A stretch of 64,000 bases of DNA from an uncultured Candidatus Saccharibacteria bacterium (GTDB lineage: Bacteria; Patescibacteriota; Minisyncoccia; Phycocordibacterales; UBA6899): contig CAYXYK010000001.1 in assembly GCA_964469335.1 (NCBI GenBank), positions 142,501 to 206,500 on the forward strand. Direction: 5' to 3'. A program made the position numbers and the translations under genes. The notes below the pieces were generated by a model. It was not told where the DNA came from. It was given only the letters and a program-made list of their open reading frames with translations, and did not search any database. Shown piece after piece: positions 5,936 through 54,468 of this stretch. Each line of letters begins with the position of its first letter. Position 1 is the stretch's first letter.

Positions 5936-6017
5936 GGGCGTGTGGCGGAATTGGTATACGCGTACGTCTCAGAAGCGTATCCCGTAAGGGTTGGGAGTTC
6001 GAGTCTCCCCACGCCCA
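5936..6017 (+). tRNA. tRNA-Leu (CAG)
   Basis: Manual fold parallel to E. coli tRNA-Leu: GGGCGTG acceptor, anticodon loop CTCAGAA, long variable arm, GGGAG-TTCGAGT-CTCCC, discriminator A. Confidence 0.85.
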
Positions 6018-6030
6018 CTTAGTTCAGAAT

Positions 6031-6169
6031 GGCGTACGTCTCAGAAGTGTGAGAAGCGAGTATGCGAGCTTCGCAAGACCTTTTGAGAGATTTTCTGAAA
6101 TCTCCAAAAGGTGAACAGCTCCTGTAGGGAGTCCCGTAAGGGTTGGGAGTTCGAGTCTCCCCATGCCCA
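6031..6169 (+). other. tRNA-Leu-like 3' portion (D-stem 3' strand to acceptor 3' end) carrying an 86-nt structured insertion after the anticodon loop
   Basis: GGCGTACGTCTCAGAAG then insertion 6048-6133, then CCCGTAAGGGTTGGGAGTTCGAGTCTCCCCATGCCCA; it lacks its own 5' acceptor strand. Confidence 0.4.
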
Positions 6170-6304
6170 CTCAGTTCAGAATAGTACACACAAAAAACTG
6201 ACTATGGTCAGTTTTTTGATTGATTGGAACATGGATGCATCATGCTGGGCTTCCTTGCTTCTCGTCACCCCTTTCGGTAGGGTGGGAGAAGATATTGGTC
6301 TCAA

Positions 6305-8787: not shown

Positions 8788-8915
8788 TAGTCGAGTGAGG
8801 ATTTGGTCACGGATAATTTCCTCGAATCGTCTTTCAAATCCAGGATTTGAAGCTTACAGCTTCAGTACACCCTTCGTGTCGTACTCGCTTCGCTTCGTGC
8901 GATATACTCAGGGTC

Positions 8916-8960
8916 TTCAAATCCTCTCACGCAAGCACGCAGGTGCTTGCTTCGGGCACA
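8916..8960 (+). repeat. Inverted partial copy of the tRNA-Leu(GAG) 3' end interrupted by a CAAG..GCAG..CTTG hairpin
   Basis: TTCAAATCCTCTCACG-[caagcac GCAG gtgcttg]-CTTCGGGCACA mirrors the T-loop and acceptor of the tRNA at 9001-9084. Confidence 0.6.
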
Positions 8961-9000
8961 GATATGAAAAAGCCGCATCAAAGCGGCTTTTTCATATCTG

Positions 9001-12749: not shown

Positions 12750-12853
12750 TCACAAGCTACTTGATTGCATGGAGGAATTTCGGTCGCTACACGACCAGTA
12801 CCCGTTTTCCATTCGCTCATGACATGAATCATTCGCGAATAAGGAAGAACGGC

Positions 12854-12900
12854 TTCGAATCCTCTATCGCAAGTCGCGCAGGCGACTTGCTTCGCCCACA
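12854..12900 (+). repeat. Inverted copy of the tRNA-Val 3' end (copy 2) interrupted by a CAAG..GCAG..CTTG hairpin
   Basis: TTCGAATCCTCTATCG-[caagtcgc GCAG gcgacttg]-CTTCGCCCACA, followed by palindromic terminator 12893-12939. Confidence 0.6.
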
Positions 12901-12931
12901 GCAAAACAAACCCTTGCGGGTTTGTTTCTTG

Positions 12932-18160: not shown

Positions 18161-18195
18161 CCCAATCAAAAAACACCTGAAGGGTGTTTTTTGAT

Positions 18196-18248
18196 TGGGC
18201 GGAGGAAGCAAGCAGGCTGCCCTGCTTGTGAGGTGAAATTCGAAGACC
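18196..18248 (-). repeat. Inverted copy of the tRNA-Ser 3' end interrupted by a CAAG..GCAG..CTTG hairpin
   Basis: Minus strand reads TTCGAATTTCACCTCA-[caagcagg GCAG cctgcttg]-CTTCCTCCGCCCA. A 24-bp palindromic terminator (18153-18200) lies between it and the tRNA; a further direct partial T-loop copy GGTTTCGAATCTCACC is at 18299-18314. Confidence 0.6.
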
Positions 18249-18430
18249 TCGCCGATGTTTCGGCTTTGCGAAACTGCCGAGGTGTACTGAAGCCGCAGGT
18301 TTCGAATCTCACCGGGCTTTTGTGACCGAATCTAATCTCTACCCTGTCCTACCACAACCCCACTCTTCCACTCCTACAGTGGGTAACTTGCTTCGTTGTC
18401 TGACTTCGTCTGTGCTAGAATAAGCACATT

Positions 18431-18880: not shown

Positions 18881-19080
18881 CCAATTTCGCAAAATCATCC
18901 CGACTACTTGTTGCGGGGCATATGCTACTCGAACGATGTACATGAATACACCTACTTCGTTGCTTTCTCCCTGCCACATAATCGTGCGATTTTGTGAAAT
19001 TGGTTGGGTTTTGACGGGAGAGGGTTTTTCATGTTAGTGTTTCCCTACTCCTCGCCCCAGCGGCATCAGGAGCAATTCAC

Positions 19081-19152
19081 GTCCTCGTCGTTCAATGGAT
19101 AGGACAAGAGTTTGCGGAACTCTAAATATAGGTTCGATTCCTATCGAGGGCA
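19081..19152 (+). tRNA. tRNA-Arg (GCG), unusual anticodon
   Basis: Manual fold: GTCCTCG/CGAGGGC acceptor, GTTC-AATGGATA-GGAC, anticodon stem-loop AGAGT-TTGCGGA-ACTCT, ATAGG-TTCGATT-CCTAT. Confidence 0.6.
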
Positions 19153-20675
19153 CAAAAATTAACTTCTTCTGAAATCTGCCCCGCGCGCAAGCGCGCGGTA
19201 GTCAGGAGGGGGTGGGTGAAATCCGAATTCGTGTTGCATGCAATGGCGAATGCGGTGGGTGGGCTAAATGAGACGGTGACGGATTTATCACGCATGATCG
19301 GGTTCGTTCCGATTTTTTTGATATAGTCCCGAATTTCCAAAAAATTATCGGACGAACTCAATTCCGTGGCTTTTTTCATATCCAAAATCCACTCCCGCAA
19401 AGGTTCGACCCAATTCTTTCTCTCTGCTCGAGCGGATGCCATTTTGTGCGCGAGCGACACCTTTTGCCCAAGGAGGTCATTTTTCTTTTTTAAATATTGC
19501 TCCTTGGGGATATCTCCGTCGAGGTAGAGTCCCACGAGGGTGTCGAGTTTCTGCTGTGTCTCGCGCTCACTTCCCCGCATCCGCTCGAGCTGACTTCCCG
19601 ACGACACGGTTTCCTCTCGCTCCCACTCGTCCACCTGTTTCGACATGCTCACAATCCAGTCGTCGGGAAGTACGATGTTTTGGAGCTGTGCTTTTACCTG
19701 AGCAACGAGCACCGCCTCCCGCATGTACCCCTGCGCACATTTTCCGTTCTTTTTCGTGCACCGATAATACCGATACAGTCCACCATGTCCTTTTGCCCAC
19801 TGTGCGGTAATCATGCCCCCACACTCCCCACAACGAAAAAGTCCGGTGAATGGAAAATCGTGATGCTTTTTTGATTTCACGGGGCGTGCTCGTTTGCTCA
19901 ATCTTTTCTGCACAGCTTCAAATAAGTCGGGAGAAAGAATTGGCGGAAATGTGCCATCAAACCATTCTCCGTGATGCTTCACCAACCCCAAATATGCCCG
20001 ATTGGAAAGCATGCCGGAGATGGCACATTTCGAGAGTGGCGTTCCATTTCGCGTCACAATGCCATGATCCGCCAAAAATTGCGCCATTGATTCGTAGCAA
20101 TGTTTCCCTGTGGCGAATTCCTTAAACACGCGAACAAGCAGGCTAGATTTCACCACGTCAGGCTCAATATTTCGCGTTTTAGGGTTATTTATATATCCAA
20201 ACGGTGCTTTGGTCAGCCATTCGCCACGGCGCAGTTTCTGGCGGATTCCACGCTCCACATTCTGCTTTAAGTTGTCGGAATAGTACTTGGACTGTCCGAA
20301 CGCCACTTGCAACATAAAAAGACCTTGCGGGGTTGGTTCAAACCAAAATGTCGGGAAGCGCAAAGAAATGATCTTGGTCGTGTCTACGGCATAGATGATG
20401 CGCCCGCCATCAATACTATTGCGTGCGAGGCGATCAGGATGCCACGCGAGGATACCCACACCGTCCATCGACTCAATGCGGGACATCATCTCATTGAATT
20501 TCTCACGACCCGGTTTCTTTGCGCTTTTCGACTCTTGAAATTCTTCGAGAATTTCAAGATTTTCTTTATGTGCGAACTCACGAAGCTCAAACAACTGCGC
20601 CTCGATAGACATCACTTGCTTATCATCATCCTCCGTACTCTTTCGCGCATAAAGAAAATATTTTGATTTGCTCAT
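19122..20675 (-). CDS. Large serine recombinase
   Basis: N-terminal YARKSTEDD...SIEAQ resolvase domain with catalytic Ser; CGECGG...YYRC zinc ribbon. The 3' end runs through the left inverted repeat and 31 nt of tRNA-Arg antisense. Start trimmed to MSKSKYF. Confidence 0.8.
   Translation of the reverse strand: MSKSKYFLYARKSTEDDDKQVMSIEAQLFELREFAHKENLEILEEFQESKSAKKPGREKFNEMMSRIESMDGVGILAWHPDRLARNSIDGGRIIYAVDTTKIISLRFPTFWFEPTPQGLFMLQVAFGQSKYYSDNLKQNVERGIRQKLRRGEWLTKAPFGYINNPKTRNIEPDVVKSSLLVRVFKEFATGKHCYESMAQFLADHGIVTRNGTPLSKCAISGMLSNRAYLGLVKHHGEWFDGTFPPILSPDLFEAVQKRLSKRARPVKSKKHHDFPFTGLFRCGECGGMITAQWAKGHGGLYRYYRCTKKNGKCAQGYMREAVLVAQVKAQLQNIVLPDDWIVSMSKQVDEWEREETVSSGSQLERMRGSERETQQKLDTLVGLYLDGDIPKEQYLKKKNDLLGQKVSLAHKMASARAERKNWVEPLREWILDMKKATELSSSDNFLEIRDYIKKIGTNPIMRDKSVTVSFSPPTAFAIACNTNSDFTHPLLTTARLRAGQISEEVNFCALDRNRTYI
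19151..19258. repeat. Left copy of a perfect 108-bp inverted repeat flanking the serine recombinase gene
   Basis: Exact reverse complement of 20742-20849; begins at the last 2 nt of tRNA-Arg. Confidence 0.9.
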
Positions 20676-20741
20676 AGATTTGCTTTTGATATAAAAAAAT
20701 GAAAAGTCCGTTGTCGGCTCATTTCCTGCCTTTCTGCCCGT

Positions 20742-20849
20742 CCACCGCATTCGCCATTGCATGCAACACGAATTCGGATTTCACCCACCCCCTCCTGACT
20801 ACCGCGCGCTTGCGCGCGGGGCAGATTTCAGAAGAAGTTAATTTTTGTG
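20742..20849. repeat. Right copy of the perfect 108-bp inverted repeat
   Basis: Reverse complement of 19151-19258. Read on the plus strand it re-encodes the recombinase C-terminal peptide (ORF 20699-20893). Confidence 0.9.
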
Positions 20850-20981
20850 CTCTTTTGCCGTGGCTCGCTCGAACCTTTTTCGAAAATAAATAAGTAATCA
20901 ACAACCACTCAGGCACCCCCGCTCGCTTCGCTCGTCGCCCCACGGGCACTCCCTCTCTCGATTTTTTTCCGCCCCGCCATA
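20850..20981. repeat. 132-bp repeat (copy 1), inverted relative to 29259-29391
   Basis: About 90 percent identical to the reverse complement of 29259-29391. Confidence 0.85.
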
Positions 20982-21082
20982 CCTAAAATCACGAAAGCAT
21001 TTCGCTTACCTTAATGCATTTCTCATGCCAATATATAATATCCCACTTTGGTCTATACCACAATGGGTTATATGCTTAAGGT

Positions 21083-21301
21083 ATGGATAGCATATACACA
21101 AAAGAACATGCGAGGCTTGTTCAGAAGCTTAAGCAGGCACGTGCTGATGCAAAGCTCACCCAGGTGCAAATTGCGAAGATGCTAAAAAAGCCACAATCAT
21201 ATATTTCAAAAATCGAACGTGGCGAGCGAAGGATAGAGGCGCTTGAGCTTGGTAAGTTTGCAAAACTGTACAAAAAAAGCATCGCGTATTTTTTTGAGTA
21301 G
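21083..21301 (+). CDS. XRE-family (Cro/CI-type) HTH transcriptional regulator
   Basis: LTQVQIAKMLKKPQSYISKIERGER HTH. Confidence 0.7.
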   Translation: MDSIYTKEHARLVQKLKQARADAKLTQVQIAKMLKKPQSYISKIERGERRIEALELGKFAKLYKKSIAYFFE

Positions 21302-21302
21302 C

Positions 21303-22136
21303 TCATTCTTTCGACATCAACTCGCGCAGGCGACGATTCACATCGATCGGCTTACCGCTCTCCTTCATAAACGCATACATGCCGAGGATCATCTTTTGAA
21401 TATCGGAGTGGCGAATCTCGATCACCATCTTGTCATTGAGTGCGAGAAGGTACATCGCGTCCTTGAATGCGAATATCTGTGCCGAGTGTTCAAAGTATGA
21501 TTGAGGAAGATATACCGCGGATGATGATCTTCCCTCATAATCTTTTGCCCATGCGTCGCCCATAGCTCTGTAATGATTTTCAATCCAATTCTGTGAAGCG
21601 ACAAGCTCGCTAATGATTCCATTCTTCTTTACGATCCGGTTCCATTCATTGATCTCTTCTGGAGTGAATATCGAGAGCCATCCTTTCTCAAGAATATCCC
21701 CGAATGGGGTGTAACCAAGAAATCGCTCATCTTTTCGTGAGGTAATCATGTCAAAAATCACTTTTTTTACGGCAGCGGCTCCACGATGCACAGTCACCAC
21801 TCCATCTGTCACTCCGCCAACCTCCTCTTTACCATCGGAAAATGCCAGCAGTTTTTTCTTGAGTGCATAGAGTGTATCCGCAAGCTCTTTCTCGCTTGCG
21901 ATATGCCAACTCTTTTTTCCTCCAACAATACGCGACGCAGCAAGCCCACGCTTCTTGAGTTTGAGCAAAATCACATATACCGATGGACGGCTCACGCGTG
22001 TTTTTCGGGCGATATCAAGTACTGAGGCTCTCCCAGATTGGAGAGCAAGAAGGACTTTCTCTTCTTTTAACGACAGATCGAGCATCCTTAACTCTTCGCG
22101 TAGAGGCTCTCTTGTCTTGATTTTTGGGTTTTTCAC
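21303..22136 (-). CDS. TrmB-family transcriptional regulator (paralog of 7373-8128)
   Basis: wHTH LALQSGRASVLDIARKTRVSRPSVYVILLKLKKRGL plus TrmB-like C-terminal domain. Confidence 0.55.
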   Translation of the reverse strand: MKNPKIKTREPLREELRMLDLSLKEEKVLLALQSGRASVLDIARKTRVSRPSVYVILLKLKKRGLAASRIVGGKKSWHIASEKELADTLYALKKKLLAFSDGKEEVGGVTDGVVTVHRGAAAVKKVIFDMITSRKDERFLGYTPFGDILEKGWLSIFTPEEINEWNRIVKKNGIISELVASQNWIENHYRAMGDAWAKDYEGRSSSAVYLPQSYFEHSAQIFAFKDAMYLLALNDKMVIEIRHSDIQKMILGMYAFMKESGKPIDVNRRLRELMSKE

Positions 22137-22332
22137 CCCCTTAGTATAGCAAATTCTACAGTTTTGTAAAGTTTTTTTGACATTTTATGTGCTATTTTCA
22201 TCCTTTATTTACAACATACTTTGTGCATGAATGTTTGATACAACATATATTTTTACTGTCAATACATTTCCTGTTACGATGATACCAGAACGATAAGCAC
22301 AGTGCTTACCGAGAACCTTGAAGGAGACGATC

Positions 22333-22623
22333 ATGTACGAAGACAATCAGGTGCGCGAAATGATGGCGTCGATCCCCCAAGGGTTTGGGGTAGTCGCGGT
22401 ACAGTTCACCAACTGGGACGCGTACAGCGACTTCGAGCTGTACAAGGTTCCAGAAGGAACTGTACTGCCCGACGGCAAAGAGCTTTCTAGCGGCGAGTGT
22501 GCTCGGTATGAATATACCCACCACGCCCGCTACGAAAAGCTCTACTCGTTCTTTCAGGATTACAGGAACATGCTTGGGTGGACCAAGCTAGATTCCTTCA
22601 TCCTAGAGACGAGGTTTGCCTAA
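22333..22623 (+). CDS. Hypothetical protein
   Basis: RBS aaggag then ATG at 22333; followed by a ctggga-acgtga-tcccag hairpin. Confidence 0.4.
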   Translation: MYEDNQVREMMASIPQGFGVVAVQFTNWDAYSDFELYKVPEGTVLPDGKELSSGECARYEYTHHARYEKLYSFFQDYRNMLGWTKLDSFILETRFA

Positions 22624-22687
22624 GGAGCCCTGGGAACGTGATCCCAGTCAATAACTCACCGTCACGCAGGAGGACGTCACTCTCCTG

Positions 22688-22745
22688 CACTTTATCAAGT
22701 TTCTGAAGTGACTCAGAAACTTGTAGAGTAAGTTCTTTGAGAAAT
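22688..22745 (+). repeat. Composite hairpin motif copy a (CTTTATCAAGTT-hairpin-AACTTGTAGAG..AGTTCTTTGA)
   Basis: ctttatcaaGTTTCTGAagtgacTCAGAAACttgtagagtaagttctttgagaaa. Confidence 0.8.
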
Positions 22746-22750
22746 GTTCC

Positions 22751-22859
22751 ATCTAAGTTTTAGGATCGTGCGAGTGATGCATCGCTCGCAGCATCCTAAA
22801 ACTTAGGCTCCCCACGTGAACGGCCCGTATTGGGTACGACGTAGGGGTGAGGAGCAATC
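22751..22859 (+). promoter_or_regulatory. Structured 110-nt leader (54-nt palindrome, then ggggtgaggag RBS) upstream of ORF 22860
   Basis: About 95 percent identical to 24158-24265; palindrome ctaagttttaggatcgtgcgagtgatgcatcgctcgcagcatcctaaaacttag. Confidence 0.6.
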
Positions 22860-23294
22860 ATGAGCAACGCAACTGAAATCATGGGCCTGCTGCATTCCTA
22901 CTACAATAAGGAGACAGCGAAGGTCAGCAGTGGTGAGGTGGATCCAAGGAATCACTTCATCAGCTGCAGAATGGACAAGGTCATTCTTCTGGGTGTGTCA
23001 TCACCAATCCCTAAGGGATGGAAGAAGGCCGGGCCTCGGCAGCTGATTTGGCTGGCTAGCCATTCTCAGTACATGCCGGTGGAGTGGAGAGGGTATGAGC
23101 TTTTGTTCGACGAGGTGGTCTTCCATGACACCGAAGCGGATAAAGACTGCATGCCTAACTCACCTCCGTCACTCTGGGTGCCGACATTGTCGTATAACAA
23201 TGGAAGCATACCCGGCTGGAACAACAAAAGGATCTTCCTTAGTTGTCGGCCGGAGACACATCCCAACATGCTTAGGTTGTGTGTGCCAGAGTAG
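22860..23294 (+). CDS. Hypothetical cassette protein A (144 aa)
   Basis: Preceded by the structured leader; no recognisable domain. Confidence 0.5.
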   Translation: MSNATEIMGLLHSYYNKETAKVSSGEVDPRNHFISCRMDKVILLGVSSPIPKGWKKAGPRQLIWLASHSQYMPVEWRGYELLFDEVVFHDTEADKDCMPNSPPSLWVPTLSYNNGSIPGWNNKRIFLSCRPETHPNMLRLCVPE

Positions 23295-23496
23295 GTGTCC
23301 AACCGCAGCGCTAGCTGACTGCGGTATAAAAATAAACTAGTAGTGGCCAACTCGAGGGCCTGCACAACGTGTGATGCTCTGTAGAAAGAGCGTGGCACGA
23401 GGTGAGTCGCTTCCATACGGCATGGAAAGAAGCGGCAAGCGCTATGACTGGTAGATATGCGCGAACTACCCACCCGCCCGAGCGTGATCGGTGCAT

Positions 23497-23585
23497 GGGG
23501 AATCGGTTGATCGTCATGTGACGATTGATTCCCCTCTTTATCGGGCTCATCACACAGATATGGTGGGTCAGTAGAGACAAGTTCT
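23497..23585 (+). repeat. Composite hairpin motif copy b (degenerate), with hairpin A GGGGAATCGGTTGATCGTCATGTGACGATTGATTCCCC
   Basis: tctttatc-gggctcatcacac...gtgggtc-agtagag-acaagttctttgaa. Confidence 0.6.
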
Positions 23586-23638
23586 TTGAATCAATCGCGA
23601 AATTCTTCGCACTGCACCTCGGGTACTGGGGTAAGGAG

Positions 23639-23797
23639 ATGAGCATGTGGAAATGGGCTGTCATCGCCCTCTGCGGCTTCCAAGCCGTGTGGGCAGCTCA
23701 CTATGTTGTCGAGAATAATGGTTGGTCGATCTTCGCGGTCGCAGCCATCATCATCGACATCCTTGTACTGCTTGCAGTCACAAAGGAGAACAGGTGA
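23639..23797 (+). CDS. Small single/double-TM peptide (52 aa)
   Basis: RBS aaggag; MSMWKWAVIALCGFQAVWAAHYVVENNGWSIFAVAAIIIDILVLLAVTKENR. Confidence 0.35.
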   Translation: MSMWKWAVIALCGFQAVWAAHYVVENNGWSIFAVAAIIIDILVLLAVTKENR

Positions 23798-23825
23798 GTA
23801 CACCCGGCCGGGAGGCCCGAGTATT

Positions 23826-23935
23826 GCGCGCTTGGGAACAGAAGTCGCATTGGGGGAAATTCATTTCCCCACTTTATCAAGTTCATCACATGGGTTGTGA
23901 ACTTGTAGAGTGCAGTTCTTTGAAAACGGCCTGTC
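23826..23935 (+). repeat. Composite hairpin motif copy c, with upstream box CGCTTGGGAACAGAAGTCGCATT and hairpin A GGGGGAAATTCATTTCCCC
   Basis: ctttatcaagttcatcacatgggttgtgaacttgtagagtgcagttctttgaaaa. Confidence 0.8.
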
Positions 23936-24070
23936 TGATGCCTTGTTGCACCGACTCCCAGGAGCGCTGCAGCAAAAATCAAATGGCTGATCACCATTTG
24001 ATGCTGACTATCGGTACTTGAACAAAACGCCGAGACGCCCGCAGATAAGGAAAGTATATCTGTGGGAGCG

Positions 24071-24150
24071 GAGGAAGCCTGCAACTTCCTCCTCTTTATC
24101 AAGTGCATCACATTGGGTGGTGCGCTTGTAGAGAAAGTTCTTTGAGAATA
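24071..24150 (+). repeat. Composite hairpin motif copy d, with hairpin A GGAGGAAGCCTGCAACTTCCTCC
   Basis: tctttatcaagtgcatcacattgggtggtgcgcttgtagagaaagttctttgagaata. Confidence 0.8.
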
Positions 24151-24157
24151 TCTCCAT

Positions 24158-24265
24158 TCTAAGTTTTAGGATCGTGCGAGTGATGCATCGCTCGCAGCAT
24201 CCTAAAACTTAGGCTCCCCACGTGCACGGCCCGCATTGGGTACGGCGTAGGGGTGAGGAGATAAC
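24158..24265 (+). promoter_or_regulatory. Structured 110-nt leader (second copy) upstream of ORF 24266
   Basis: Near-identical to 22751-22859, including the RBS. Confidence 0.6.
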
Positions 24266-24697
24266 ATGTCCAAGATCTATGTTTCACACTTTCATGGTTT
24301 CAACGACCTGGAGGCCACCAAGATGGCTGTGTCAGGCATTGAAGCAGAAAGTGAAAAGGAACTCCGACTGAAGCTTAGGGGTCGCCTCCTCGCCAACCTT
24401 GACAGCATTGTCGAAGAGTTGATGGAGAAGACCTTCAGCCTTCAGTATGTGACCCCGTTGGGTCAAAGGGTTTATCCCGAGGTGTACGAGATGATGCAAA
24501 GCCTGCCCAAGGGGTATACGCTCATCGAGTACACCTACCAGGTGAGGCCTGGGTGCATCGACTATCGAACGATGTACTACCAGGCCCCTGAAGGGATCGA
24601 GGTCGATGGCAAGACCTTGAGGGAAAGCGAGTTCTATCGGGCCGGAGGTTACTACGGAAGTAATCCTCCATGGGCCGTGAACTGCACCCGACTCTGA
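24266..24697 (+). CDS. Hypothetical cassette protein B (143 aa; unrelated in sequence to protein A)
   Basis: Same leader as 22860; the 3' flank 24698-24960 is homologous to 23295-23555. Confidence 0.5.
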   Translation: MSKIYVSHFHGFNDLEATKMAVSGIEAESEKELRLKLRGRLLANLDSIVEELMEKTFSLQYVTPLGQRVYPEVYEMMQSLPKGYTLIEYTYQVRPGCIDYRTMYYQAPEGIEVDGKTLRESEFYRAGGYYGSNPPWAVNCTRL

Positions 24698-24898
24698 CGG
24701 AGTAACCGCAGAGCTTGTTCGAACGACTGCGGTATAGAAATGAACAAGTAGTGGTCAACTCGAGGACCTGCACATTGCATGTCGCCCGTAGAACGGCAGA
24801 TGCACAAGGTGAGACCGTGGATACAGCTAAAACCATGGACAAACGCTTTACTGGTAGATACGCGTGAACTACTCGTCTGCCAGTACGTGAACTGTGCG

Positions 24899-24998
24899 CG
24901 GGGAATCGGTTGATCGTCATGTGACGATTGATTCCCCTCTTTATCAAGTTTCTGAAGAAATTCGGAAGCTTGTAGAGATGAGTTCATTGAATCAGTGT
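24899..24998 (+). repeat. Composite hairpin motif copy e, with hairpin A GGGAATCGGTTGATCGTCATGTGACGATTGATTCCCC
   Basis: tctttatcaagtttctgaagaaattcggaagcttgtagagatgagttcattgaatcag. Confidence 0.8.
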
Positions 24999-25099
24999 GA
25001 TGAAGTGAAGCGATGCCAGGAAGGCCTGTGGGGCATGTCTTTCAAACGAAAGCATGAACACATTCCTGCCATCACTCCACTTCATCACCGGAGATAACT

Positions 25100-25345
25100 A
25101 TGCAAAAGCTGATCATTGTTTGTGCGCTGTTTGTGCTGTCGGGCTGCGATATCGTCTACAGCGATCGCGCCGGCTTTGCGCACGGCTACCGCGACGGGCA
25201 AGGAGTCGCCTTGGGTCATGGAACATGCCAGACATTTCCAAACCCACGGAAGTCGATCATCCCGATCGAGCGACCGGCAAGTTACGCAAATGCATATCGG
25301 GAGGGATATGCGGTGGGCTGCCGAGCCATGCTCCGACATGAGTAA
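25100..25345 (+). CDS. Small lipoprotein (81 aa)
   Basis: Signal peptide and lipobox LSGC; preceded by a long imperfect hairpin leader 25003-25095. Confidence 0.5.
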   Translation: MQKLIIVCALFVLSGCDIVYSDRAGFAHGYRDGQGVALGHGTCQTFPNPRKSIIPIERPASYANAYREGYAVGCRAMLRHE

Positions 25346-25357
25346 GACTCCGAGCCC

Positions 25358-25478
25358 GCGACGCTTGGGAACAGAAGTCGCATTCGCAGAACATTTTGTT
25401 CTGCACTTTATCAAGTTCACGAAATGGCCTGCCTGTCGGCAGACAGGTTCGTGAACTTGTAGAGCAAACTCTTTCAAT
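25358..25478 (+). repeat. Composite hairpin motif copy f, with upstream box CGCTTGGGAACAGAAGTCGCATT and hairpin A GCAGAACATTTTGTTCTGC
   Basis: ctttatcaagttcacgaaatggcctgcctgtcggcagacaggttcgtgaacttgtagagcaaactctttcaatcaaggag. Confidence 0.8.
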
Positions 25479-25491
25479 CAAGGAGAAGACC

Positions 25492-25635
25492 ATGTGGTAT
25501 GTATTCTGTTTTGTGATCGGTTTCGCGTTTGGCGCACTGCTTGTGATCGAGATCAAGCTTGAGCTTGCGGGTTACCAGCCGCCGGAGGGCTACCCACGCA
25601 TTCCGCTTGACCGTGGTCCATACGTGCGACTGTGA
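25492..25635 (+). CDS. Small TM peptide (47 aa)
   Basis: RBS aaggag; MWYVFCFVIGFAFGALLVIEIK... Confidence 0.35.
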   Translation: MWYVFCFVIGFAFGALLVIEIKLELAGYQPPEGYPRIPLDRGPYVRL

Positions 25636-25669
25636 GTGTTCGGTTGAAAATTAACGAAAGGAGATCGTC

Positions 25670-25837
25670 ATGAAGAAAGTCGGGAAGACCCTCGCTCCGC
25701 GCCTGCCGGAGATCGCGAGGAAGAAGCTCACGCAGGGCGGTACGCACAATAACAAGAAGGCGTACAAGAGGAAGGAAAAGCATCACAGCCGAGAGACCTC
25801 TCGGCTGTATTTTTTAGTGATACAATTCATCAGATGA
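25670..25837 (+). CDS. Small highly basic protein (55 aa, K/R-rich)
   Basis: RBS aaggagatcgtc-ATG; MKKVGKTLAPRLPEIARKKLTQGGTHNNKKAYKRKEKHH...; an internal terminator-like hairpin near the 3' end makes the true stop uncertain. Confidence 0.3.
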   Translation: MKKVGKTLAPRLPEIARKKLTQGGTHNNKKAYKRKEKHHSRETSRLYFLVIQFIR

Positions 25838-26472
25838 GCACAGCGATAGAAATTGCAAGTGATATACATACGCTGACATCGAATTGGTCAAAAGGTCAGC
25901 ACAAGCTCGTTATGGCCCTCGATGGGTATACCGGTGTCGGGAAGACAACGATACTGAACGAACTATTGAAACTCAATCCTGACATCCTTCCTGTGCATGT
26001 GGACGACTTCATTTTGCCGCCGGCAGAATTCAAGGAAATTCTCGCGGAGAACTCCGACCGTTCGATTGCATTTGAACTGCATCGCAATGACTATGCGAGG
26101 ATTGAAGAATTGGTGAATAGGTTTCGCACACAAGATGACCCCGTCGAGGTGCTCGTTGCAAATCCAGTGACCGGAGCGATCGATGTTCCCAAAACCTTCG
26201 ACTGTTCGAAGAAGATTATGGTCGTCGAGGGGGTGTTCATGTTTCACCCGAAGTTACTGAACCACCTTTGGGACAAGCGCATATATCTTGATGGAGATAC
26301 TACGAAAATTGACGAGCGACGAATTGCTCGCGAAAAAGCACGTTGGGGTGATAAATATTTTCCCGAAACCCATCCAGATTCATTCTTTGGACAGGTGGTC
26401 ATTGCACTCAAGCGATATCGCGAAGAATATAAACCAGAAGAATTAGCGGATGCAGTATTATTCGTGAATTAA
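25834..26472 (+). CDS. P-loop nucleoside kinase, uridine kinase / PRK family-like
   Basis: Walker A GYTGVGKTT; RIYLDGDTTKIDERRIARE resembles the udk motif IFVDTDADVRLARRI. Confidence 0.55.
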   Translation: MSTAIEIASDIHTLTSNWSKGQHKLVMALDGYTGVGKTTILNELLKLNPDILPVHVDDFILPPAEFKEILAENSDRSIAFELHRNDYARIEELVNRFRTQDDPVEVLVANPVTGAIDVPKTFDCSKKIMVVEGVFMFHPKLLNHLWDKRIYLDGDTTKIDERRIAREKARWGDKYFPETHPDSFFGQVVIALKRYREEYKPEELADAVLFVN

Positions 26473-26477
26473 TTTTT

Positions 26478-27293
26478 ATGCTTAAGGATTTTTACCAAAA
26501 AAACCAAAGAGAAATAGCAAACGCAGTGCGTGATTTTGTCGATAAAGATTTGTACGGAGAACTCCCAGAGTTGAGAGGCGCCTGTTCAATTCTTGTAACA
26601 GGATCAGTGGCAACTAATAACTACGACCATTTTAGTGACATTGATCTCAATATACTTTTTGCCACTGACGAACAGGTGGCAAAATTCTCCCAGAGCATAT
26701 CAAAATACAAACAACACCTCAGAGAAATTGGGGAGCCGGTGCAAATTCATAAGCCAAACACCTACCAGTCCATCAAAGCAACGCTCGCAACATGGCAAAA
26801 CGATTCTCTGTTGAGAGAATATGCTCAAGCATTGATCGTCAACGATCCCCAAGATCAATTTTTGGCGATACAACAAAAATTTGCATACTACCCGCAAGAA
26901 ATATATAAGGAAAAAATTCAGTGGCTTTTTGCAGAAATGAATTTTCAGCTCAAGGATCGACTTGAGATTGGGGTCGCTCGGCAAGATCGATATTTCTGTG
27001 AGATCGTAAAGATGAATATCGTAAGATTGTTTTTGAATACATTACTCCTTCTAGGGCACAAATATCCGTCATTTGATAAACATCTATATCGCGATGCGAA
27101 GATGATTTTGCAGGAAGAAGTAAAACTTGTAGACAAACTTATTGGCGAAAAAGATTTGCCACAAATTCAACTCGAGACTCAACAACTTAAAGATCGTATT
27201 GAAACACTTCTCTTGGCAGCCCAGTTGATACCAAAAGAAACCGACCAGTACTGGATCGACCTGCGGCCCGCTTATCAAGTCAAATTGGACTAA
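26478..27293 (+). CDS. Pol-beta-superfamily nucleotidyltransferase with C-terminal helical domain (KNTase/Lnu-like architecture)
   Basis: GSVATNNYDHFSDIDLNILF is the hG[GS]x9-13Dh[DE]h motif. Confidence 0.6.
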   Translation: MLKDFYQKNQREIANAVRDFVDKDLYGELPELRGACSILVTGSVATNNYDHFSDIDLNILFATDEQVAKFSQSISKYKQHLREIGEPVQIHKPNTYQSIKATLATWQNDSLLREYAQALIVNDPQDQFLAIQQKFAYYPQEIYKEKIQWLFAEMNFQLKDRLEIGVARQDRYFCEIVKMNIVRLFLNTLLLLGHKYPSFDKHLYRDAKMILQEEVKLVDKLIGEKDLPQIQLETQQLKDRIETLLLAAQLIPKETDQYWIDLRPAYQVKLD

Positions 27294-27297
27294 GACA

Positions 27298-27855
27298 ATG
27301 AAAGGTGACGTACAAATGCGAAAACAAAGAGACAAAGAACACTTCGTTTTACGAGATGCAGACATATTTCCTAATGCAAAAACTGTCGAAGGAATGAAGT
27401 TTGAAGAGCGACTTGCAGTGAAGGTAATTCTTTTCGACAAAGACAAGAAGTTGGCACTCGTGGGAACCAAGCACCGTCTCTTGCCTGGTGGTGGAGTGGA
27501 TAAAAATGAAGGTAATGAGGATGCTGCTAAGCGTGAAATAAGAGAAGAGGTTGGCTGTGAAATAAAGGTCATCCGTGAAATAGCGAAAACTGAAGAGTTT
27601 CGAGAAAAAATCGGAAGACACCAATACACGAGATTTCTTCTCGCTGAAGTTGTGGGTGAGAAAGGTACACCTCAAACAACACAAAGTGACGAACAAGGCA
27701 TAGTTATCGAGTGGTGCACGCTCGCAGAGGCAATCACATTATTGGAAAAACAGAAAGAAGAAATCCCCTTCGAAGAATATAACGCCTGTTTCAATGTCCG
27801 CACTCATCTTAAGGTTTTGAAAGAGTTTCAAGCCAGCAATAATAGTGCGATCTGA
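27298..27855 (+). CDS. NUDIX hydrolase
   Basis: Nudix box GGGVDKNEGNEDAAKREIREEVG. Confidence 0.75.
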   Translation: MKGDVQMRKQRDKEHFVLRDADIFPNAKTVEGMKFEERLAVKVILFDKDKKLALVGTKHRLLPGGGVDKNEGNEDAAKREIREEVGCEIKVIREIAKTEEFREKIGRHQYTRFLLAEVVGEKGTPQTTQSDEQGIVIEWCTLAEAITLLEKQKEEIPFEEYNACFNVRTHLKVLKEFQASNNSAI

Positions 27856-27958
27856 AAATCAGCCCCCCAGTGCCCTTCTGGGCTCACGGATGGCTCTAGG
27901 TGTGCCACTTTCCTGCATAGCTGTGTCATATACCACTTCATTTTGCTAAAATAGGTCA

Positions 27959-28579
27959 ATGGATGAGCAAAATAGCCCCTCAACAGAACCCACTACAACT
28001 ACCCCTGATCCAGTGGTAAATACCCCAGCAGTTGAACCACAGCAAGCTGAAGTCGTTCAAGCCCCAGCGGAGATAGCTCCTGTACCAGAAACAACTCAAA
28101 TTGTCGCACCATCTGAGCCGATCGCCGAAACCCCAACGGCTCAAATGGCAGGAAGTGAGCCGTTGCCCGAAGTTCAATCGGCGTCTGCACCGAGCGCTAC
28201 CGCGCCAGCGGAAGCGCCTCAGCCACAAACTCCAACTGTCACTCAAGCTTCAACGGCAACGCCAGAACCAATGCCAACTCCTGTGCAACCTGCCCCCGCA
28301 TCCATGCCCGCGCAAGCGCCAGTCACAACTCCTCCTCGTAACCTCGCTCGTCTCTTCCTCGAAAAAGCGAAAGCAGTCATCCAATTTCGCAAGCAGAAGA
28401 AACTCACAAAGATTATGACGCTGTTTGAAAAGAAAAAACAAATCACGAATGACGAAGTGGAAAAACTCCTGCATGTCTCCGATGCAACCGCGACACGCTA
28501 TCTTTCTGAACTAGAGAAGCAAAACAAGATCACACAGACAGGAAAAATAGGACACGCAGTCACATACACCAAGCGCTAA
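27959..28579 (+). CDS. DNA-binding protein: Pro/Ala/Thr/Gln-rich disordered N-terminal region plus C-terminal winged HTH
   Basis: C-terminus ITNDEVEKLLHVSDATATRYLSELEKQNKITQTGKIGHAVTYTKR. Confidence 0.5.
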   Translation: MDEQNSPSTEPTTTTPDPVVNTPAVEPQQAEVVQAPAEIAPVPETTQIVAPSEPIAETPTAQMAGSEPLPEVQSASAPSATAPAEAPQPQTPTVTQASTATPEPMPTPVQPAPASMPAQAPVTTPPRNLARLFLEKAKAVIQFRKQKKLTKIMTLFEKKKQITNDEVEKLLHVSDATATRYLSELEKQNKITQTGKIGHAVTYTKR

Positions 28580-28654
28580 CTCACACTCAGTCCTTCGATC
28601 ACTGCATGTCAGCTCTCGCACAGCATATTCGCCGTACCAATCACGTGGATTCCT

Positions 28655-29000
28655 CCGGCCTCGGGCATTTCCGCTAGGGCGCCCATGATAACCGGATGAG
28701 CGCCGCCGCGAACGGAGGCACCCATGTTCGTAGCGAAAGCGACAAGAGGAACTCGGTAATGAAAACTCGGGTGGGGGGTTGTGCGGGTGGCGGTCCTCCG
28801 CCTCCACGCGGGGGGGAGGGTCCGCCCATCCCCCCAAACAGAGGCGGGCGTGACTCGCCGATTCAGAGTCTTCAAAGTCGAACGGCTCAATTGGTGGGAA
28901 ATGAGCCGTTCAGAGTAAACCAACGGCTCACTCGGCGAGGCAACCGCCCGTTCACTGACATCTAGGCGCGAGTAGCCCTAGCGGAAATGCCCGAAGCCGG
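28655..29000. other. GC-rich 346-bp non-coding element bounded by 26-bp terminal inverted repeats (MITE-like element or structured ncRNA; class unresolved)
   Basis: TIRs CCGGCCTCGGGCATTTCCGCTAGGGC / GCCCTAGCGGAAATGCCCGAAGCCGG; GC content far above the flanks; only nonsense ORFs; internal AACGGCTCA repeats. Confidence 0.35.
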
Positions 29001-29258
29001 ATGGCTGAGGGTGCACTGAAACTCCAACTACCTCTCACTCCAATCGCCGCACCGAAGTCGGAGGGCGATCACGGGAGTCTGTACGGAGAGAGAAGTGAAG
29101 AACGGATACTGCGCGCAAGGAGGAAGCACCCCCGGCTGGCGCATCAGCAGGAAACGAGCAAGCCCGAACAACCACAATGCTCTCGATCTACACATGCTCG
29201 TTTCCTGATGAATGCGACAGTTGCCCCACGGTCATCTTCTTCCTTACTGCAATTTTCT

Positions 29259-29391
29259 TATGGCGGGGCGGAAAAAAATCGAGAGCCGGAGATGCCGTGG
29301 GGAGACGAGCGAAGCGAGCGGGGGTGCCTGAGTGGTTGTTGATTACTTATTTATTTTCGAAAAAGGTTCGAGCGAGCCACGGCAAAAGAGC
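29259..29391. repeat. 132-bp repeat (copy 2), inverted relative to 20850-20981
   Basis: Followed by the palindrome caccaaaagaaaaaacggc-atta-gccgttttttcttttggtg (29392-29436). Confidence 0.85.
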
Positions 29392-29601
29392 ACCAAAAGA
29401 AAAAACGGCTAATGCCGTTTTTTCTTTTGGTGCCCTCGAGAAGTTACCTGCGCGCATTACGGATAAGAATCGAAAGGGTTTTCATTGTCGCGTCTTTGAG
29501 AGTGAAGACAACCTGCGGCGGTTGCCGAGATTCCTGCCACAAAATAGCATCCCTTTTTCTTCCCATAGTCCCCTTCACCCGCTATACTGGATGTAATTCA
29601 T

Positions 29602-39508: not shown

Positions 39509-39668
39509 CACCCAATGATACCGCAAATTAAAAAACCTCCAATTGAGGGGTTTTCAGCATACATATCTTTGGGCAGGTCACGAATATTTTCTGCTGAAAA
39601 TTTCGCGACCCCGCCTCGCGCCGCCGCGCTCCGGCTCTAAAAACTTCCATGCTTTCAGTTTTTAGCAC

Positions 39669-39715
39669 CTTTTGGGGATTTAGGAAAATCCCTCAAAAGG
39701 TCTTGCGTGAGAAGA
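39669..39715 (+). repeat. 46-bp palindromic direct repeat, copy 1
   Basis: caccttttggggatttaggaaaatccctcaaaaggtcttgcgtgag. Confidence 0.8.
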
Positions 39716-39770
39716 CCGGAGCTCACTGAGGATTCATATCGCGCACTCGCCCTACAGGCGCAGTACACCT

Positions 39771-39817
39771 TTTGGGGATTTAGGAAAATCCCTCAAAAGG
39801 TCTTGCGTGAGTGACAG
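39771..39817 (+). repeat. 46-bp palindromic direct repeat, copy 2
   Basis: Identical to copy 1; 56-bp spacer. Confidence 0.8.
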
Positions 39818-45553: not shown

Positions 45554-46084
45554 ATGTCAGGACACAGTAAATGGGCGCAAATCAAAAGACAGAAAGGGGC
45601 TGAGGATGCGAAGAAATCAAAACTATTCGGTAAGCTCGGAAGTCTCATCGCCTCTGAATCACGCAAATCAAAAGGAGACACTTCAGCTCCGGGACTTCGC
45701 ACCATCATAGAGAAAGCGAAGAAAGAGAATATGCCGAAAGATACCATCGAGCGTGCCGTCAAAAAAGGCATGGGTGGAGAAGCGGACGCGATGGAAGAGC
45801 TGACCTACGAAGCATACGGTCCAGGAGGCTGCGCACTGATCATTGAGTCGTTCACAGGAAACAGGAACAAAGCTGCGCAAGAAATTAAATTCATCCTATC
45901 AAAGAATGGGGGCTCGCTTGCCGCTCAGGGTGCCGCATCATGGGCGTTCACAAAAAATGAAGACGGATGGGAACCTGCCAATACGACCCCACTTTCTGAC
46001 GAGGATGGGGCGCAGCTCTCCACGCTCATCGAAGAGCTTGAAGCGAACGACGAGGTGCAGGATGTTTACACGAACGCTGATTAA
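45554..46084 (+). CDS. YebC/PmpR-family transcriptional regulator (truncated type)
   Basis: MSGHSKWAQIKRQKG. Confidence 0.85.
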   Translation: MSGHSKWAQIKRQKGAEDAKKSKLFGKLGSLIASESRKSKGDTSAPGLRTIIEKAKKENMPKDTIERAVKKGMGGEADAMEELTYEAYGPGGCALIIESFTGNRNKAAQEIKFILSKNGGSLAAQGAASWAFTKNEDGWEPANTTPLSDEDGAQLSTLIEELEANDEVQDVYTNAD

Positions 46085-46087
46085 CTC

Positions 46088-46579
46088 ATGCGGGTACTCG
46101 CGATTGACCCTGGATTCGGACGCTGTGGTGTTGCTCTCCTCGACGGAGACGCATCATCGGCGCACATTATCCATTCGGATACGATCAAAACAGACGCGAA
46201 GTCGGAATTCATCGACCGGCTACTCGTGATAGCCGAAACAATCTCCGATTTGATCGAGACACACAAGCCTGAGCTAGTCGCCATCGAAGAATTATTCTTC
46301 AGCAACAATCAAAAAACGGTTTTCCATGTTGCGGAAGTACGTGGGGTACTGATGTATCTCGCGGTCTCTCGCCATATTCCCCTTGTTGAGTACAATCCGC
46401 TTGCTATAAAGATCGCGCTTACCGGACATGGTCGTGCCACCAAACAAGAAGTGATGAAGATGGTCACACGATTGACTGATCTTACTAAGACACCGAGACA
46501 CGATGATGAATATGATGCGATAGCCCTTGGTATCACCGCACTTGCCGGTGCTAGAAGTATGGCTATACGGGGCCGTTAA
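46088..46579 (+). CDS. ruvC: Crossover junction endodeoxyribonuclease RuvC
   Basis: MRVLAIDPGFGRCGVAL...AIEELFF. Confidence 0.85.
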   Translation: MRVLAIDPGFGRCGVALLDGDASSAHIIHSDTIKTDAKSEFIDRLLVIAETISDLIETHKPELVAIEELFFSNNQKTVFHVAEVRGVLMYLAVSRHIPLVEYNPLAIKIALTGHGRATKQEVMKMVTRLTDLTKTPRHDDEYDAIALGITALAGARSMAIRGR

Positions 46580-46771
46580 ATAAAGTTTTCCACATATTAT
46601 TTTCGCCCTCTTGCGAAGCATCTTGTCGCGTGATACATATTGGGTAATGTTTGATTCGATCACCTTTCAAACATTTGTTCACAGGAAGGGCTAGGATAGT
46701 AAGCATGCCCCCGTAAACATTCGACGGAAAACATATCGTTAAATAATTAGATTATAAAAAATTGATCAATC

Positions 46772-46966
46772 ATGGGAGATGACTTAATTGCAGGAGGAAT
46801 ATTACCTGTCGACGATACCTCGTCAGACGAAAAAGAGTTCGACCCTGACGCTCTTGAGAGTGATGATCTTCTTGATGATTTTATTGAGGATCCACTTCTC
46901 TCCGAAGAGCTTGCCCTAGGAGATGAAGATGATGAGGAATCACCTTTTGCAGACGAAATGGAGTAG
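46772..46966 (+). CDS. Small highly acidic protein (64 aa, about 40 percent Asp/Glu)
   Basis: MGDDLIAGGILPVDDTSSDEKEFDPDALESDDLLDDFIEDPLLSEELALGDEDDEESPFADEME. Confidence 0.35.
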   Translation: MGDDLIAGGILPVDDTSSDEKEFDPDALESDDLLDDFIEDPLLSEELALGDEDDEESPFADEME

Positions 46967-47034
46967 GAATTATCGCCATCATCAAAAAAACAAAGAACAC
47001 CGCGAGAAAACGCGGTGTTCTTTGTTAATGAGCA

Positions 47035-48489: not shown

Positions 48490-48556
48490 GCTAACACATC
48501 ATTTTTTCTTTGTCTTTTTGATGAGTTTTTATGCTAGTATAGAGAGAACTTTCTCT

Positions 48557-51091: not shown

Positions 51092-51352
51092 TCAGCGTAT
51101 CTCAGATATTTTCTGAAGGTTTCCATCATTCAATGTTTCAATGATTTTCTTTTTATAAAGGAAGATTTGGTTTTTCTTTATAGGAGAAGTGAGGAGAATT
51201 ATTTCTCCTCTTTCTATTTTATATTCATTATTCTTGAGTGTGACACCACTGATATTCTTTATGATTTGAGAGATCTCCTCACGTATCAGATCAGACCGAA
51301 GAAGTGTTTTTTTATATCGTTCAAGAAAATCCTTAATCCCTTTTAATTCCAT
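51092..51352 (-). CDS. Small DUF721-like protein downstream of dnaN
   Basis: Position and size only. Confidence 0.35.
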   Translation of the reverse strand: MELKGIKDFLERYKKTLLRSDLIREEISQIIKNISGVTLKNNEYKIERGEIILLTSPIKKNQIFLYKKKIIETLNDGNLQKISEIR

Positions 51353-51354
51353 AT

Positions 51355-54040: not shown

Positions 54041-54215
54041 AAAAGATCCTCGTTGATTACATCAATAACTTATCGACCAATTATAACGAACAAGTTGAAC
54101 GCGGAGAAAAACAAAGAAATGTTCATAAGTAGTGTATAAACTGTGGACAACATTACAACACAACCAAACATCAGGCAACATTGAAAAAATAAAAATAGTA
54201 TTCTATACTGCGCGC

Positions 54216-54350: not shown

Positions 54351-54468
54351 TCATTCTCTGACGTCTGTAGTCATTTGATCTTGTTATTCGAAGAGCACTA
54401 CCCACAGAGATACTGTGGGTAGCGCTCTTACATACTCCTGTATAAACGGTGCATTGTAGGGAAAAAAT

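Follow-up and report, generated by a model that had tools for sequence, protein, structure and literature searches.

In the 64-kb window analysed here (positions 142,501 to 206,500 of contig CAYXYK010000001.1 from an uncultured Candidatus Saccharibacteria bacterium), a block of accessory genes lies between two long inverted repeats, directly beside a gene for a large serine recombinase (LSR). This block is probably the cargo compartment of a bipartite LSR island of approximately 10 kb, inserted between the 3' end of tRNA-Arg(GCG) and the terminator of this tRNA gene. The island is composed of a recombinase cassette and the cargo, and each of the two compartments is bounded by its own inverted repeats (IR-A and IR-B, respectively). 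The features that delimit the compartments and form the junctions J1 to J3 are as follows.

19081 to 19153, plus strand: tRNA-Arg(GCG), the integration target (ARAGORN, Rfam, junction analysis).
19122 to 20675, minus strand: LSR of 517 amino acids (Pfam, translation, 100% match to P0001).
19147 to 19264, unstranded: outer arm of IR-A ('P'), crossed by the recombinase open reading frame (ORF) with its 3' end; together with the tRNA end, the arm forms J1 (reads as attL).
20736 to 20853, unstranded: inner arm of IR-A (P'), upstream of the recombinase, forming J2 with the start of IR-B (core GTGC, 20847-20850).
20842 to 20981, unstranded: proximal arm of IR-B, with the family-wide motif AAAAAGGTTCG..(24 nt)..GCAC at its outer end and TTTCCGCCCCGCCATA at its inner end.
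29259 to 29398, unstranded: distal arm of IR-B, whose outer end and core GCAC (29390-29393) form J3, which reads as attR.
29394 to 29478, unstranded: native tRNA downstream structure, in which a terminator palindrome (up to 29436) leads into an inverted acceptor end (29430-29439), from which 21 inserted nt separate an inverted T-arm (29461-29478).

Repeat search and alignment of the window showed the IR-B arms to be 140 nt long and 95% complementary, with 8277 nt between them, an inner motif CCGCCCCGCCA and seven mismatches clustered at approximately 20937-20955. The variant at these mismatches is present in the proximal arm of the window only, where it is base-for-base identical in an independent Logan assembly (L083; L numbers denote contigs or loci of relatives). 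Because the variant is confined to this arm, the mismatch cluster was discarded as uninformative about a past inversion. The IR-A arms (118 nt, 97% complementary) enclose the minus-strand recombinase ORF and overlap with IR-B at GTGC. No further copy of IR-A or IR-B was found within the window, and inverted repeats of at least 40 nt number just five in its 64 kb; the two pairs are therefore far beyond chance. An earlier note, made from the sequence of the window alone, had described the block as bounded by inverted 132-bp copies of about 90% identity with a central mismatch cluster, the first of which abuts a 108-bp repeat of the recombinase. The inverted pair, the cluster and the adjacency were all recovered, but both lengths and the identity had to be revised to the values given above. 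The palindrome that it had placed behind the second copy is likewise real (29387-29436, 23-nt arms and a 4-nt loop), but it is the native terminator of the tRNA and lies outside the element.

Judged by its sequence, the 517-aa enzyme is a bona fide LSR. Pfam identified the domains PF00239 Resolvase (1.7e-21), PF07508 Recombinase (2.5e-13) and PF13408 Zn_ribbon_recom (5.9e-12) in this order, and thus the combination of a serine-nucleophile resolvase domain with recombinase and zinc-ribbon domains by which the class is defined. The N-terminus YFLYARKSTEDD contains the motif Y-x-R-x-S (YARKST), and the nearest solved structure is that of the SPbeta integrase (9dxh, residues 9-399, E 6.5e-10). With its length and its recombinase and zinc-ribbon domains, the enzyme is not a small serine invertase (~190 aa with a C-terminal helix-turn-helix (HTH) domain). 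Exact look-ups of the recombinase and of a 206-aa protein encoded in the cargo found nothing on record; the closest homologues came from Yonathbacteria, Lloydbacteria, Nomurabacteria and other Paceibacteria, which identifies the organism as a member of the Patescibacteria, the candidate phyla radiation. A scan of viral contigs returned no relatives and hence no sign of a phage integrase. The tRNA gene is situated directly beyond IR-A and is convergent with the recombinase gene, whose ORF has no stop of its own before the end of the element and crosses IR-A into the antisense strand of the tRNA, so that the last residues of the protein depend on the DNA to which the element is joined. The last bases of the tRNA gene, G71 C72 A73 C74 (19150-19153), are the proposed crossover core, and CCA is not encoded.

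Junction analysis revealed a core, G(A/G)GCAC, that is common to four places. At J1, the tRNA end is followed by IR-A (..TCGAGGGCAC joined to AAAAATTAAC), and at J2, read on the reverse strand, the end of IR-B is followed by IR-A (..GGCAAAAGAGCAC joined to AAAAATTAAC). J3 connects the end of IR-B to the terminator arm (..GGCAAAAGAGCAC joined to CAAAAGAAAAAAC), and J4, again on the reverse strand, connects a copy of the tRNA end to the terminator arm (..TCTCGAGGGCAC joined to CAAAAGAAAAAAC). Together, the four junctions comprise every pairing of the left arms (tRNA 'X' and element 'B') with the right arms (element 'P' and host 'Q'), which is the arrangement predicted for attL, attP, attR and attB. 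The core GCAC (tRNA nt 71-74) occurs at each module boundary in alternating orientation, J1 and J3 being direct and J2 and J4 inverted relative to these. While J1 and J3 read as the putative attL and attR of the island, J2 is an inverted copy of the predicted attP (B.P) of an excised circle. The two 140-nt repeats would consequently be two copies of the 'B' arm of the attachment site, one of which is found at the true right end of the island and the other internally, between recombinase and cargo.

The native state of such a site could be read from the recombinase-free tRNA genes of the window, namely tRNA-Leu(gag), tRNA-Val and tRNA-Ser, which have a common downstream layout. A bidirectional terminator palindrome starts at the tRNA end; behind it come the acceptor 3' strand as an inverted copy, a GC hairpin of 21-23 nt (AGCAAG..CTGC..CTTGC) with a covarying stem, and an inverted T-arm. 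Joining position 19153 to 29394 restores this layout exactly (terminator, GTGCCCTCGA, 21-nt insert, GGATAAGAATCGAAAGGG), and the reconstructed junction between tRNA-Arg and the terminator reads ..TCGAGGGCAC joined to CAAAAGAAAAAACGGC... Since removal of the island recreates the native arrangement, as expected of an island at a tRNA gene, the stretch from 19154 to 29393, with recombinase cassette and cargo, constitutes a single insertion, and both the palindrome and J4 are host sequence. L001, L009 and L035 likewise have an inverted copy of the tRNA end approximately 50 nt past the distal arm. Inverted pseudo-tRNA halves were observed at 8890-9000 (Leu gag), 12821-12931 (Val), 18163-18250 (Ser) and 29394-29478 (after the island); these inverted 3'-half copies may be part of the recombinase target or represent a disabled mirror target. 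The 10-nt inverted tRNA-end copy at 29430 was initially a candidate product of recombinase-mediated inversion, which was dropped as the recombinase-free tRNAs carry such halves too.

With this single insertion, the element limits of 20850-29436 given in the earlier note are replaced by 19154-29393, and the recombinase cassette becomes part of the element. The proposal of an accessory island delivered by the recombinase is thereby supported, as cassette and block form one tRNA-Arg insertion whose cargo differs between relatives with the same flanks. The proposal of a composite mobile element was abandoned. Unlike those of a composite transposon or an insertion sequence, the arms of 140 nt encode nothing, and no duplication was detected beyond the 4-nt core, which is inverted.

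To place the island in a wider context, 80 loci from a scan of species-representative genomes were compared. Homologues of the recombinase number more than 6000 in Paceibacteria and related lineages of the candidate phyla radiation (CPR), often with several copies per genome at different tRNAs. IR-A was found in 72 of the 80 loci (median 131 nt and 94% identity, with 28 loci at 98% or above), and in 56 of these 72 no more than 12 nt separate its outer end from the 3' end of a convergent tRNA. The target tRNAs included Glu, Ala, Arg, Ile, Gly, Ser, Val, Leu, Pro and Lys, and the recombinase ORF exits through IR-A in essentially all loci. An IR-B pair abutting the inner IR-A arm was present in at least 12 loci with enough upstream sequence; here, the repeats are 150-270 nt long, mostly 99-100% identical, and enclose 1.4-8 kb. 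More than half of the contigs (42 of 80) stop within the 700 nt upstream of the recombinase gene, and the element family thus frequently causes contigs to break in metagenome assemblies of CPR bacteria. For some of the adjoining tRNAs, ARAGORN reported odd anticodons, namely Ser(ACT) twice and a 'stop' TTA (L046 11526-11613, L058 1822-1909 and L010 1832-1905).

Covariation among J1, J2 and J3, which have 3-7 nt in common, was observed for the core NCAC (tRNA nt 71-74), and the motif GTTCGNGCAAAGG at the outer end of IR-B was found in 31 loci, in approximately 29 of which it is next to the recombinase cassette. In the left half-sites only, the spacing between GTTCG and the core is 23-24 nt in IR-B and 18 nt in the tRNA T-arm, corresponding to a shift of 6 bp. 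For LSRs, the zinc-ribbon motif of attP half-sites has been described to lie approximately 5 bp outward from its position in attB half-sites, with 5 bp for the LI integrase, and the shift observed here appears similar in direction and roughly in size (PMC3783163). Recombinase lineages track the tRNA type (40 of 47 nearest neighbours), and recombinase copies inside one genome are just 65-75% identical; they behave as site-specific integrases and not as promiscuous transposases. On the same grounds, spread of the cassette as a promiscuous transposon among the tRNAs of one genome was ruled out. Inversion of the recombinase cassette itself was also ruled out, as its orientation to the tRNA is constant in 56 loci.

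Among the closest known systems are LSR islands and prophages (SPbeta SprA/YokA, A118/LI, Bxb1, phiC31 and SCCmec CcrAB). Common to these and the island are an enzyme built from a resolvase, a recombinase and a zinc-ribbon domain, insertion at one specific site of the chromosome, hybrid junctions that have few bases in common, variable accessory or defence cargo and, in the left half-sites, apparently also a recognition motif that lies further out in the element-side than in the host-side half-site (PMC3783163). In contrast to these systems, the family studied here targets the extreme 3' ends of many tRNA types with recombinase lineages specialised by type, and its recombinase gene is boxed by inverted repeats of 115-155 nt, through one of which the ORF leaves. 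It also contains an internal inverted copy of the whole predicted attP region, as a result of which the cargo is bounded by inverted repeats of 140-270 nt, and a directionality factor was not recognised. No description of this two-compartment architecture was found in the literature, and a serine-integrase island with an internal inverted attachment copy is, as far as we found, undescribed.

The cargo compartment of the window consists of framework features at its two ends and a variable part in between.

21083 to 21301, plus strand: XRE-family HTH gene, a framework gene (Pfam, blastp, tblastn).
21303 to 27855, unstranded: variable cargo with a TrmB-like regulator, an array of small ORFs and hairpins (~22650-25500), a PRK-like kinase, a nucleotidyltransferase and a NUDIX protein.
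27959 to 28579, plus strand: 206-aa protein with a C-terminal winged HTH domain, a framework gene convergent with the structured element (Pfam).
28606 to 29030, minus strand: GC-rich structured RNA-like element (23+5-bp closing helix, internal hairpin, compensatory changes).

The XRE gene is divergent from the recombinase and lies just inside the proximal arm in many relatives. A look-up of its sequence returned only a 1.2-kb Logan contig that ends inside the arm and from which the orientation is not readable. A consensus scan of IR-A and IR-B detected no promoter-like site in either repeat, and a promoter in the identical arms that drives both the XRE gene and the RNA was therefore rejected; no Rfam family matched the repeats.

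Cargo replacement was evident from the comparison with L001. The flanks of this locus are as in the window, and its recombinase cassette is 95% identical in DNA, yet the cargo is different: BubE/ThiF/ubiquitin-like (Bil-like) genes, a pair of HTH and M78 peptidase genes and a HATPase protein take the place of 21013-27853. For the tRNA and cassette together (19080-20912 versus L001 9764-11596), the DNA identity is 95%, compared to 71-77% for the flanking chromosomal genes; this difference suggests a recent transfer or conversion between diverged genomes. Cargo in other relatives comprises type I restriction-modification, an OLD/AAA_15 protein, or small metabolic and regulatory genes. In a sister population of Yonathbacteria, contigs from many samples carry an identical recombinase (83% identical to that of the window) at tRNA-Arg(tct) in one chromosomal context, and within L084-L095 identical recombinase proteins occur beside different cargo, with L088 and L092 as examples. 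The earlier note had named two findings that would speak against it, namely the same block in the same orientation without the repeats in related genomes and the repeat at many unrelated loci. Relatives were found to keep the repeats and change the cargo, and no dispersal of the repeat to unrelated loci was seen. The Yonathbacteria contigs contain another recombinase of the family approximately 8 kb off (L084 13155-13670, L086 10036-11451 and L087 9754-10719), joined to different tRNAs (Ile, Val) or truncated, depending on the sample; this variation reflects either rearrangement among paralogous cassettes or assembly chimeras.

Both orientations of the cargo were found in the sister population. 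Over 10.2 kb, L084 and L085 run collinear with 99.98% identity, except that the repeat-bounded 1.4-kb segment is inverted (L084 1479-3278 aligns in reverse to L085 1801-1), and this segment encodes HxlR, a 66-aa ORF and an FAD/NAD oxidoreductase. L091, L106, L109 and L111 are oriented as L085, which gives a split of 6 to 1 with L084 as the flipped contig. In L015, the RNA end and not the XRE end adjoins the recombinase. The window, L001 and L003 all have the XRE end beside the recombinase, with no inversion seen in the window lineage, and the cargo orientation is also alike within the pair of L009 and L014. The large invertible segment suggested in the earlier note is thus supported in relatives, with a single orientation seen in the window, L001 and L003.

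These orientations bear on whether the element is a programmed invertible switch, in which the recombinase often flips the IR-B segment in a Hin/Gin/Cin-like manner and thereby alters which end (XRE or RNA) faces the recombinase and hence expression. Such a switch would fit the inverted repeats directly beside a serine recombinase gene, the distinct conserved framework features at the two ends of the segment, the many contigs that break at the arms, and the occurrence of both orientations in the sister population and, with L015, across lineages. We nevertheless regard it as unlikely, given one orientation in the window, L001, L003 and the L009/L014 pair, a ratio of 6 to 1 in the Yonathbacteria population, a 517-aa LSR in place of a small invertase, and arms that contain no promoter-like site. 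Moreover, repeats of 150-270 nt alone would give contig breaks, and a switch does not need the wholesale replacement of cargo between relatives. The known serine invertase systems (Hin/H, Gin/G of Mu, Cin/C of P1, Pin/P of e14 and PinQ) are comparable in that the serine recombinase gene lies just outside an inverted-repeat segment and both orientations occur in nature, which for the present family refers to the one contig against six. However, their enzymes have approximately 190 aa with a C-terminal HTH and depend on a Fis-dependent enhancer, and their segments hold alternative gene ends (tail fibres, flagellin promoter), whereas the element described here combines a 517-aa integrase-type LSR with 1.4-8 kb of exchangeable cargo in a strongly skewed orientation. 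In phage P1, the repeats are long (0.6 kb) and carry the crossover sites at their outer ends, an arrangement that is also proposed for the element in the window.

The crossover between L084 and L085 itself is compatible with homologous (RecA-type) recombination, which explains the inversion as well as a site-specific event would. Its endpoints lie within 131 nt of perfect identity while the outer parts of the arms did not move, and this, together with the mosaic structure of arms between contigs and other palindromic structures at tRNAs in the genome, could be taken to mean that the repeats are passive by-products of template switching or gene conversion without any role in recombination, the flips being chance RecA events. 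We consider this very unlikely, because the arms end exactly at the common core and retain motifs where they are otherwise unalignable, the placement of the repeats relative to the recombinase recurs at many different tRNAs, and the four-way arm combinations around common blocks look like site-specific exchange.

For the bipartite LSR island that we favour, the following mechanism is proposed. The LSR would cut at the core, and recombination between the direct repeats J1 and J3 would excise and integrate the entire island. The inverted internal copy would allow the cargo to flip and to be exchanged relative to the recombinase, either by the LSR or by RecA acting on the repeats, and the arms would serve as docking points for new cargo. 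A structural analogy is offered by the yeast 2-micron plasmid, in which Flp acts on FRT within two inverted repeats that separate two unique regions. The circularised island would likewise have two unique regions and two inverted site-bearing copies of approximately 260 bp. The analogy ends there, as Flp is a tyrosine recombinase and acts in an autonomous eukaryotic plasmid, where flipping is a means of amplifying the copy number.

Several points weigh against this reading. The recombinase cassette has a single orientation in all 56 informative loci, indicating that the two attP-like copies are not used equivalently, contrary to a simple model with two equal sites. Canonical LSRs recombine only attP with attB, or attL with attR if a directionality factor is present, and they do not recombine the pair that would flip the cargo (attP-type with attR-type). 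No candidate for a directionality factor was recognised; although the XRE protein and the 206-aa HTH protein are conserved as neighbours, nothing links them to directionality. The right half-sites (P and Q) display no matching motif and no clear dyad symmetry with the left ones. A relative with an empty tRNA-Arg(GCG) site was not recovered, and neither was an excised circle for the window lineage, which would be unrecognisable by its junction since J2 already carries that sequence. In the L084/L085 flip, the crossover within 131 identical bases left the distinguishable outer arm parts in place, and the flipped orientation was seen in one contig of seven, for which misassembly is possible. Finally, the proposed mechanism gives no account of how the long internal duplicates arise or stay 95-100% identical.

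Further rearrangements in relatives concern the arms. The distal arm of L091 contains an additional segment of 4 kb that has inverted arms of its own and is flanked by direct copies of a 42-nt block; the same site is unoccupied in L084, L106 and L109. The arms of different contigs are combinations of sub-blocks around this 42-nt block, which the inner end of IR-B in the window (TTTCCGCCCCGCCATA) resembles. In L108/L111, the same cargo and left flank are joined, at the outer end of the arm, to a terminator hairpin and tRNA-Arg(gcg) without a recombinase, and L046 has a similar recombinase-free module beside tRNA-Ser(gct). In L002, the entire tRNA-Arg-recombinase unit is mirrored beside the response regulator; here, 11 nt of the tRNA 5' end (ACGACGAGGAC) recur at a distance of 104 nt (1859-2046). 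The segment chain with sites in alternating orientation is reminiscent of shufflons (Rci), and the entry of cassettes at a resident site beside the recombinase (L091 versus L109) of integrons (IntI). Both of these systems, however, employ tyrosine recombinases with short sites (19-bp sfx or structured attC) and have neither long paired arms nor a tRNA target, whereas the sole recombinase of the island is of the serine type and its repeats are unlike attC or sfx.

Recombinase-free modules also raise the possibility that two elements are stacked, with the cargo as a non-autonomous element that has IR-B termini and is mobilised in trans, and the recombinase cassette with IR-A as a later insertion, so that no single island with an internal attP copy would exist. 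We rate this as rather unlikely, although it would account for the modules with similar arms at tRNA-Ser(gct) in L046 and tRNA-Arg(gcg) in L111, for the further repeat-bounded cassette at an arm of L091, for the common core that ends each module, and for a cassette far more conserved than its surroundings (95% versus 71-77% DNA identity between the window and L001). Each module has inverted cores, whereas a single conservative insertion of a circle by a serine recombinase would be expected to leave direct ones. The conserved 'B' motif stands beside the recombinase cassette in approximately 29 loci regardless of the tRNA, and a solitary recombinase cassette without a B end was not seen. Cargo modules without a recombinase are also known from tDNA islands with tandem accretion, and Islander-type tDNA islands and Prochlorococcus tycheposons (bioRxiv 10.1101/2020.12.28.424599) have tRNA 3' landing sites and small elements with variable cargo in common with the island. 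In contrast, those elements mostly use tyrosine integrases, with a direct repeat of 15-50 nt that regenerates the tRNA and a displaced fragment in direct orientation, while approximately 4 nt are common to the junctions here and the module ends are long inverted repeats.

At the cargo's distal end, the structured RNA-like element is a candidate for a new RNA family tied to the recombinase family. It spans approximately 400 nt and folds more stably than shuffled sequences (z -5.8 and -8.6). In the alignment, 94% of the cells were paired, compared to 40-52% in slid controls; seven pairs showed compensatory changes, and G-U pairs favour the recombinase strand. There was no match in Rfam. In 12 of 16 loci, the element was located upstream of the recombinase and on the recombinase strand. 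Where the distal arm was visible, the element lay just inside it, and where a gene for the 206-aa HTH protein was detected, the two were convergent. Copies were found at L001 2299-2720, L009 4678-5098, L014 4556-4975, L056 3699-4157 and elsewhere. By tblastn, the 206-aa HTH protein was also identified in L001, L011, L013, L035, L036 and L047.

As to the remaining cargo, Pfam agreed with the content listed in the earlier note (XRE, TrmB, the kinase-nucleotidyltransferase-NUDIX trio and the HTH protein). A TrmB-like winged HTH was assigned to 21303-22136, and the nucleotidyltransferase was assigned as nucleotidyltransferase/DUF4037. Matches of the window cargo to the PADLOC defence library were weak, the best being that of the NUDIX protein to PDC-S07 (4e-8). 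No ORF of the small-ORF array matched Pfam or PADLOC. In this array (~22650-25500), the small ORFs alternate between strands and are interspersed with an imperfect palindrome (CTTTATCAAG..CTTGTAGAG) in five copies and with two perfect palindromes of 54 nt, and it contains a 1.4-kb tandem duplication (22752-22867 versus 24158-24273 at 93% and 23447-23542 versus 24850-24945 at 86%). Downstream of the block, genes for a response regulator, ribosomal protein S20, RuvA and a T4SS-pilin protein follow.

A compositional profile of the block, which the earlier note had proposed as a check, did not set it apart. Its GC content is 0.486 compared to 0.484 elsewhere, and its tetranucleotide distance equals the median of windows of the same size, so that a signature of foreign DNA by composition was rejected.

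In a broader and rather doubtful extension, CPR/Patescibacteria would possess distinct tRNA-end 'cargo platforms' as a hybrid of serine-integrase island, shufflon and integron. A resident LSR would keep an inverted spare attachment site, and the chain of alternating sites would capture, flip and swap defence and accessory cassettes. The structured RNA of ~400 nt and the two HTH proteins would act as dedicated regulators or co-factors, and the inverted pseudo-tRNA halves behind many tRNAs would belong to the target system. CPR bacteria make up a large share of bacterial diversity, and their mobile elements and exchange of defence genes are poorly known. If the LSR does act on the chain of sites, the range of serine integrases would extend beyond one-way integration to the management of cargo via an internal inverted site, and the family would comprise natural integrases with predictable tRNA-end targets, whose specificity apparently tracks the tRNA type.

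Additional repeats were noted elsewhere in the window. The last 51 nt of tRNA-Leu(cag) (5980-6030) are directly repeated 152 nt downstream at 6132-6182 with 96% identity, as if a further small element with a tRNA target had left its footprint there. Between the two copies, 113 nt include a hairpin (6072-6129) that is also present as two perfect tandem copies near 39.7 kb (39666-39811). A 300-nt direct repeat with 94% identity is located at 57860-58159 and 59190-59489 (1330 nt from start to start). The region from 46000 to 56000 has a low GC content (0.36-0.44 versus ~0.49) and the most deviant tetranucleotide composition of the window, being far more atypical than the block.

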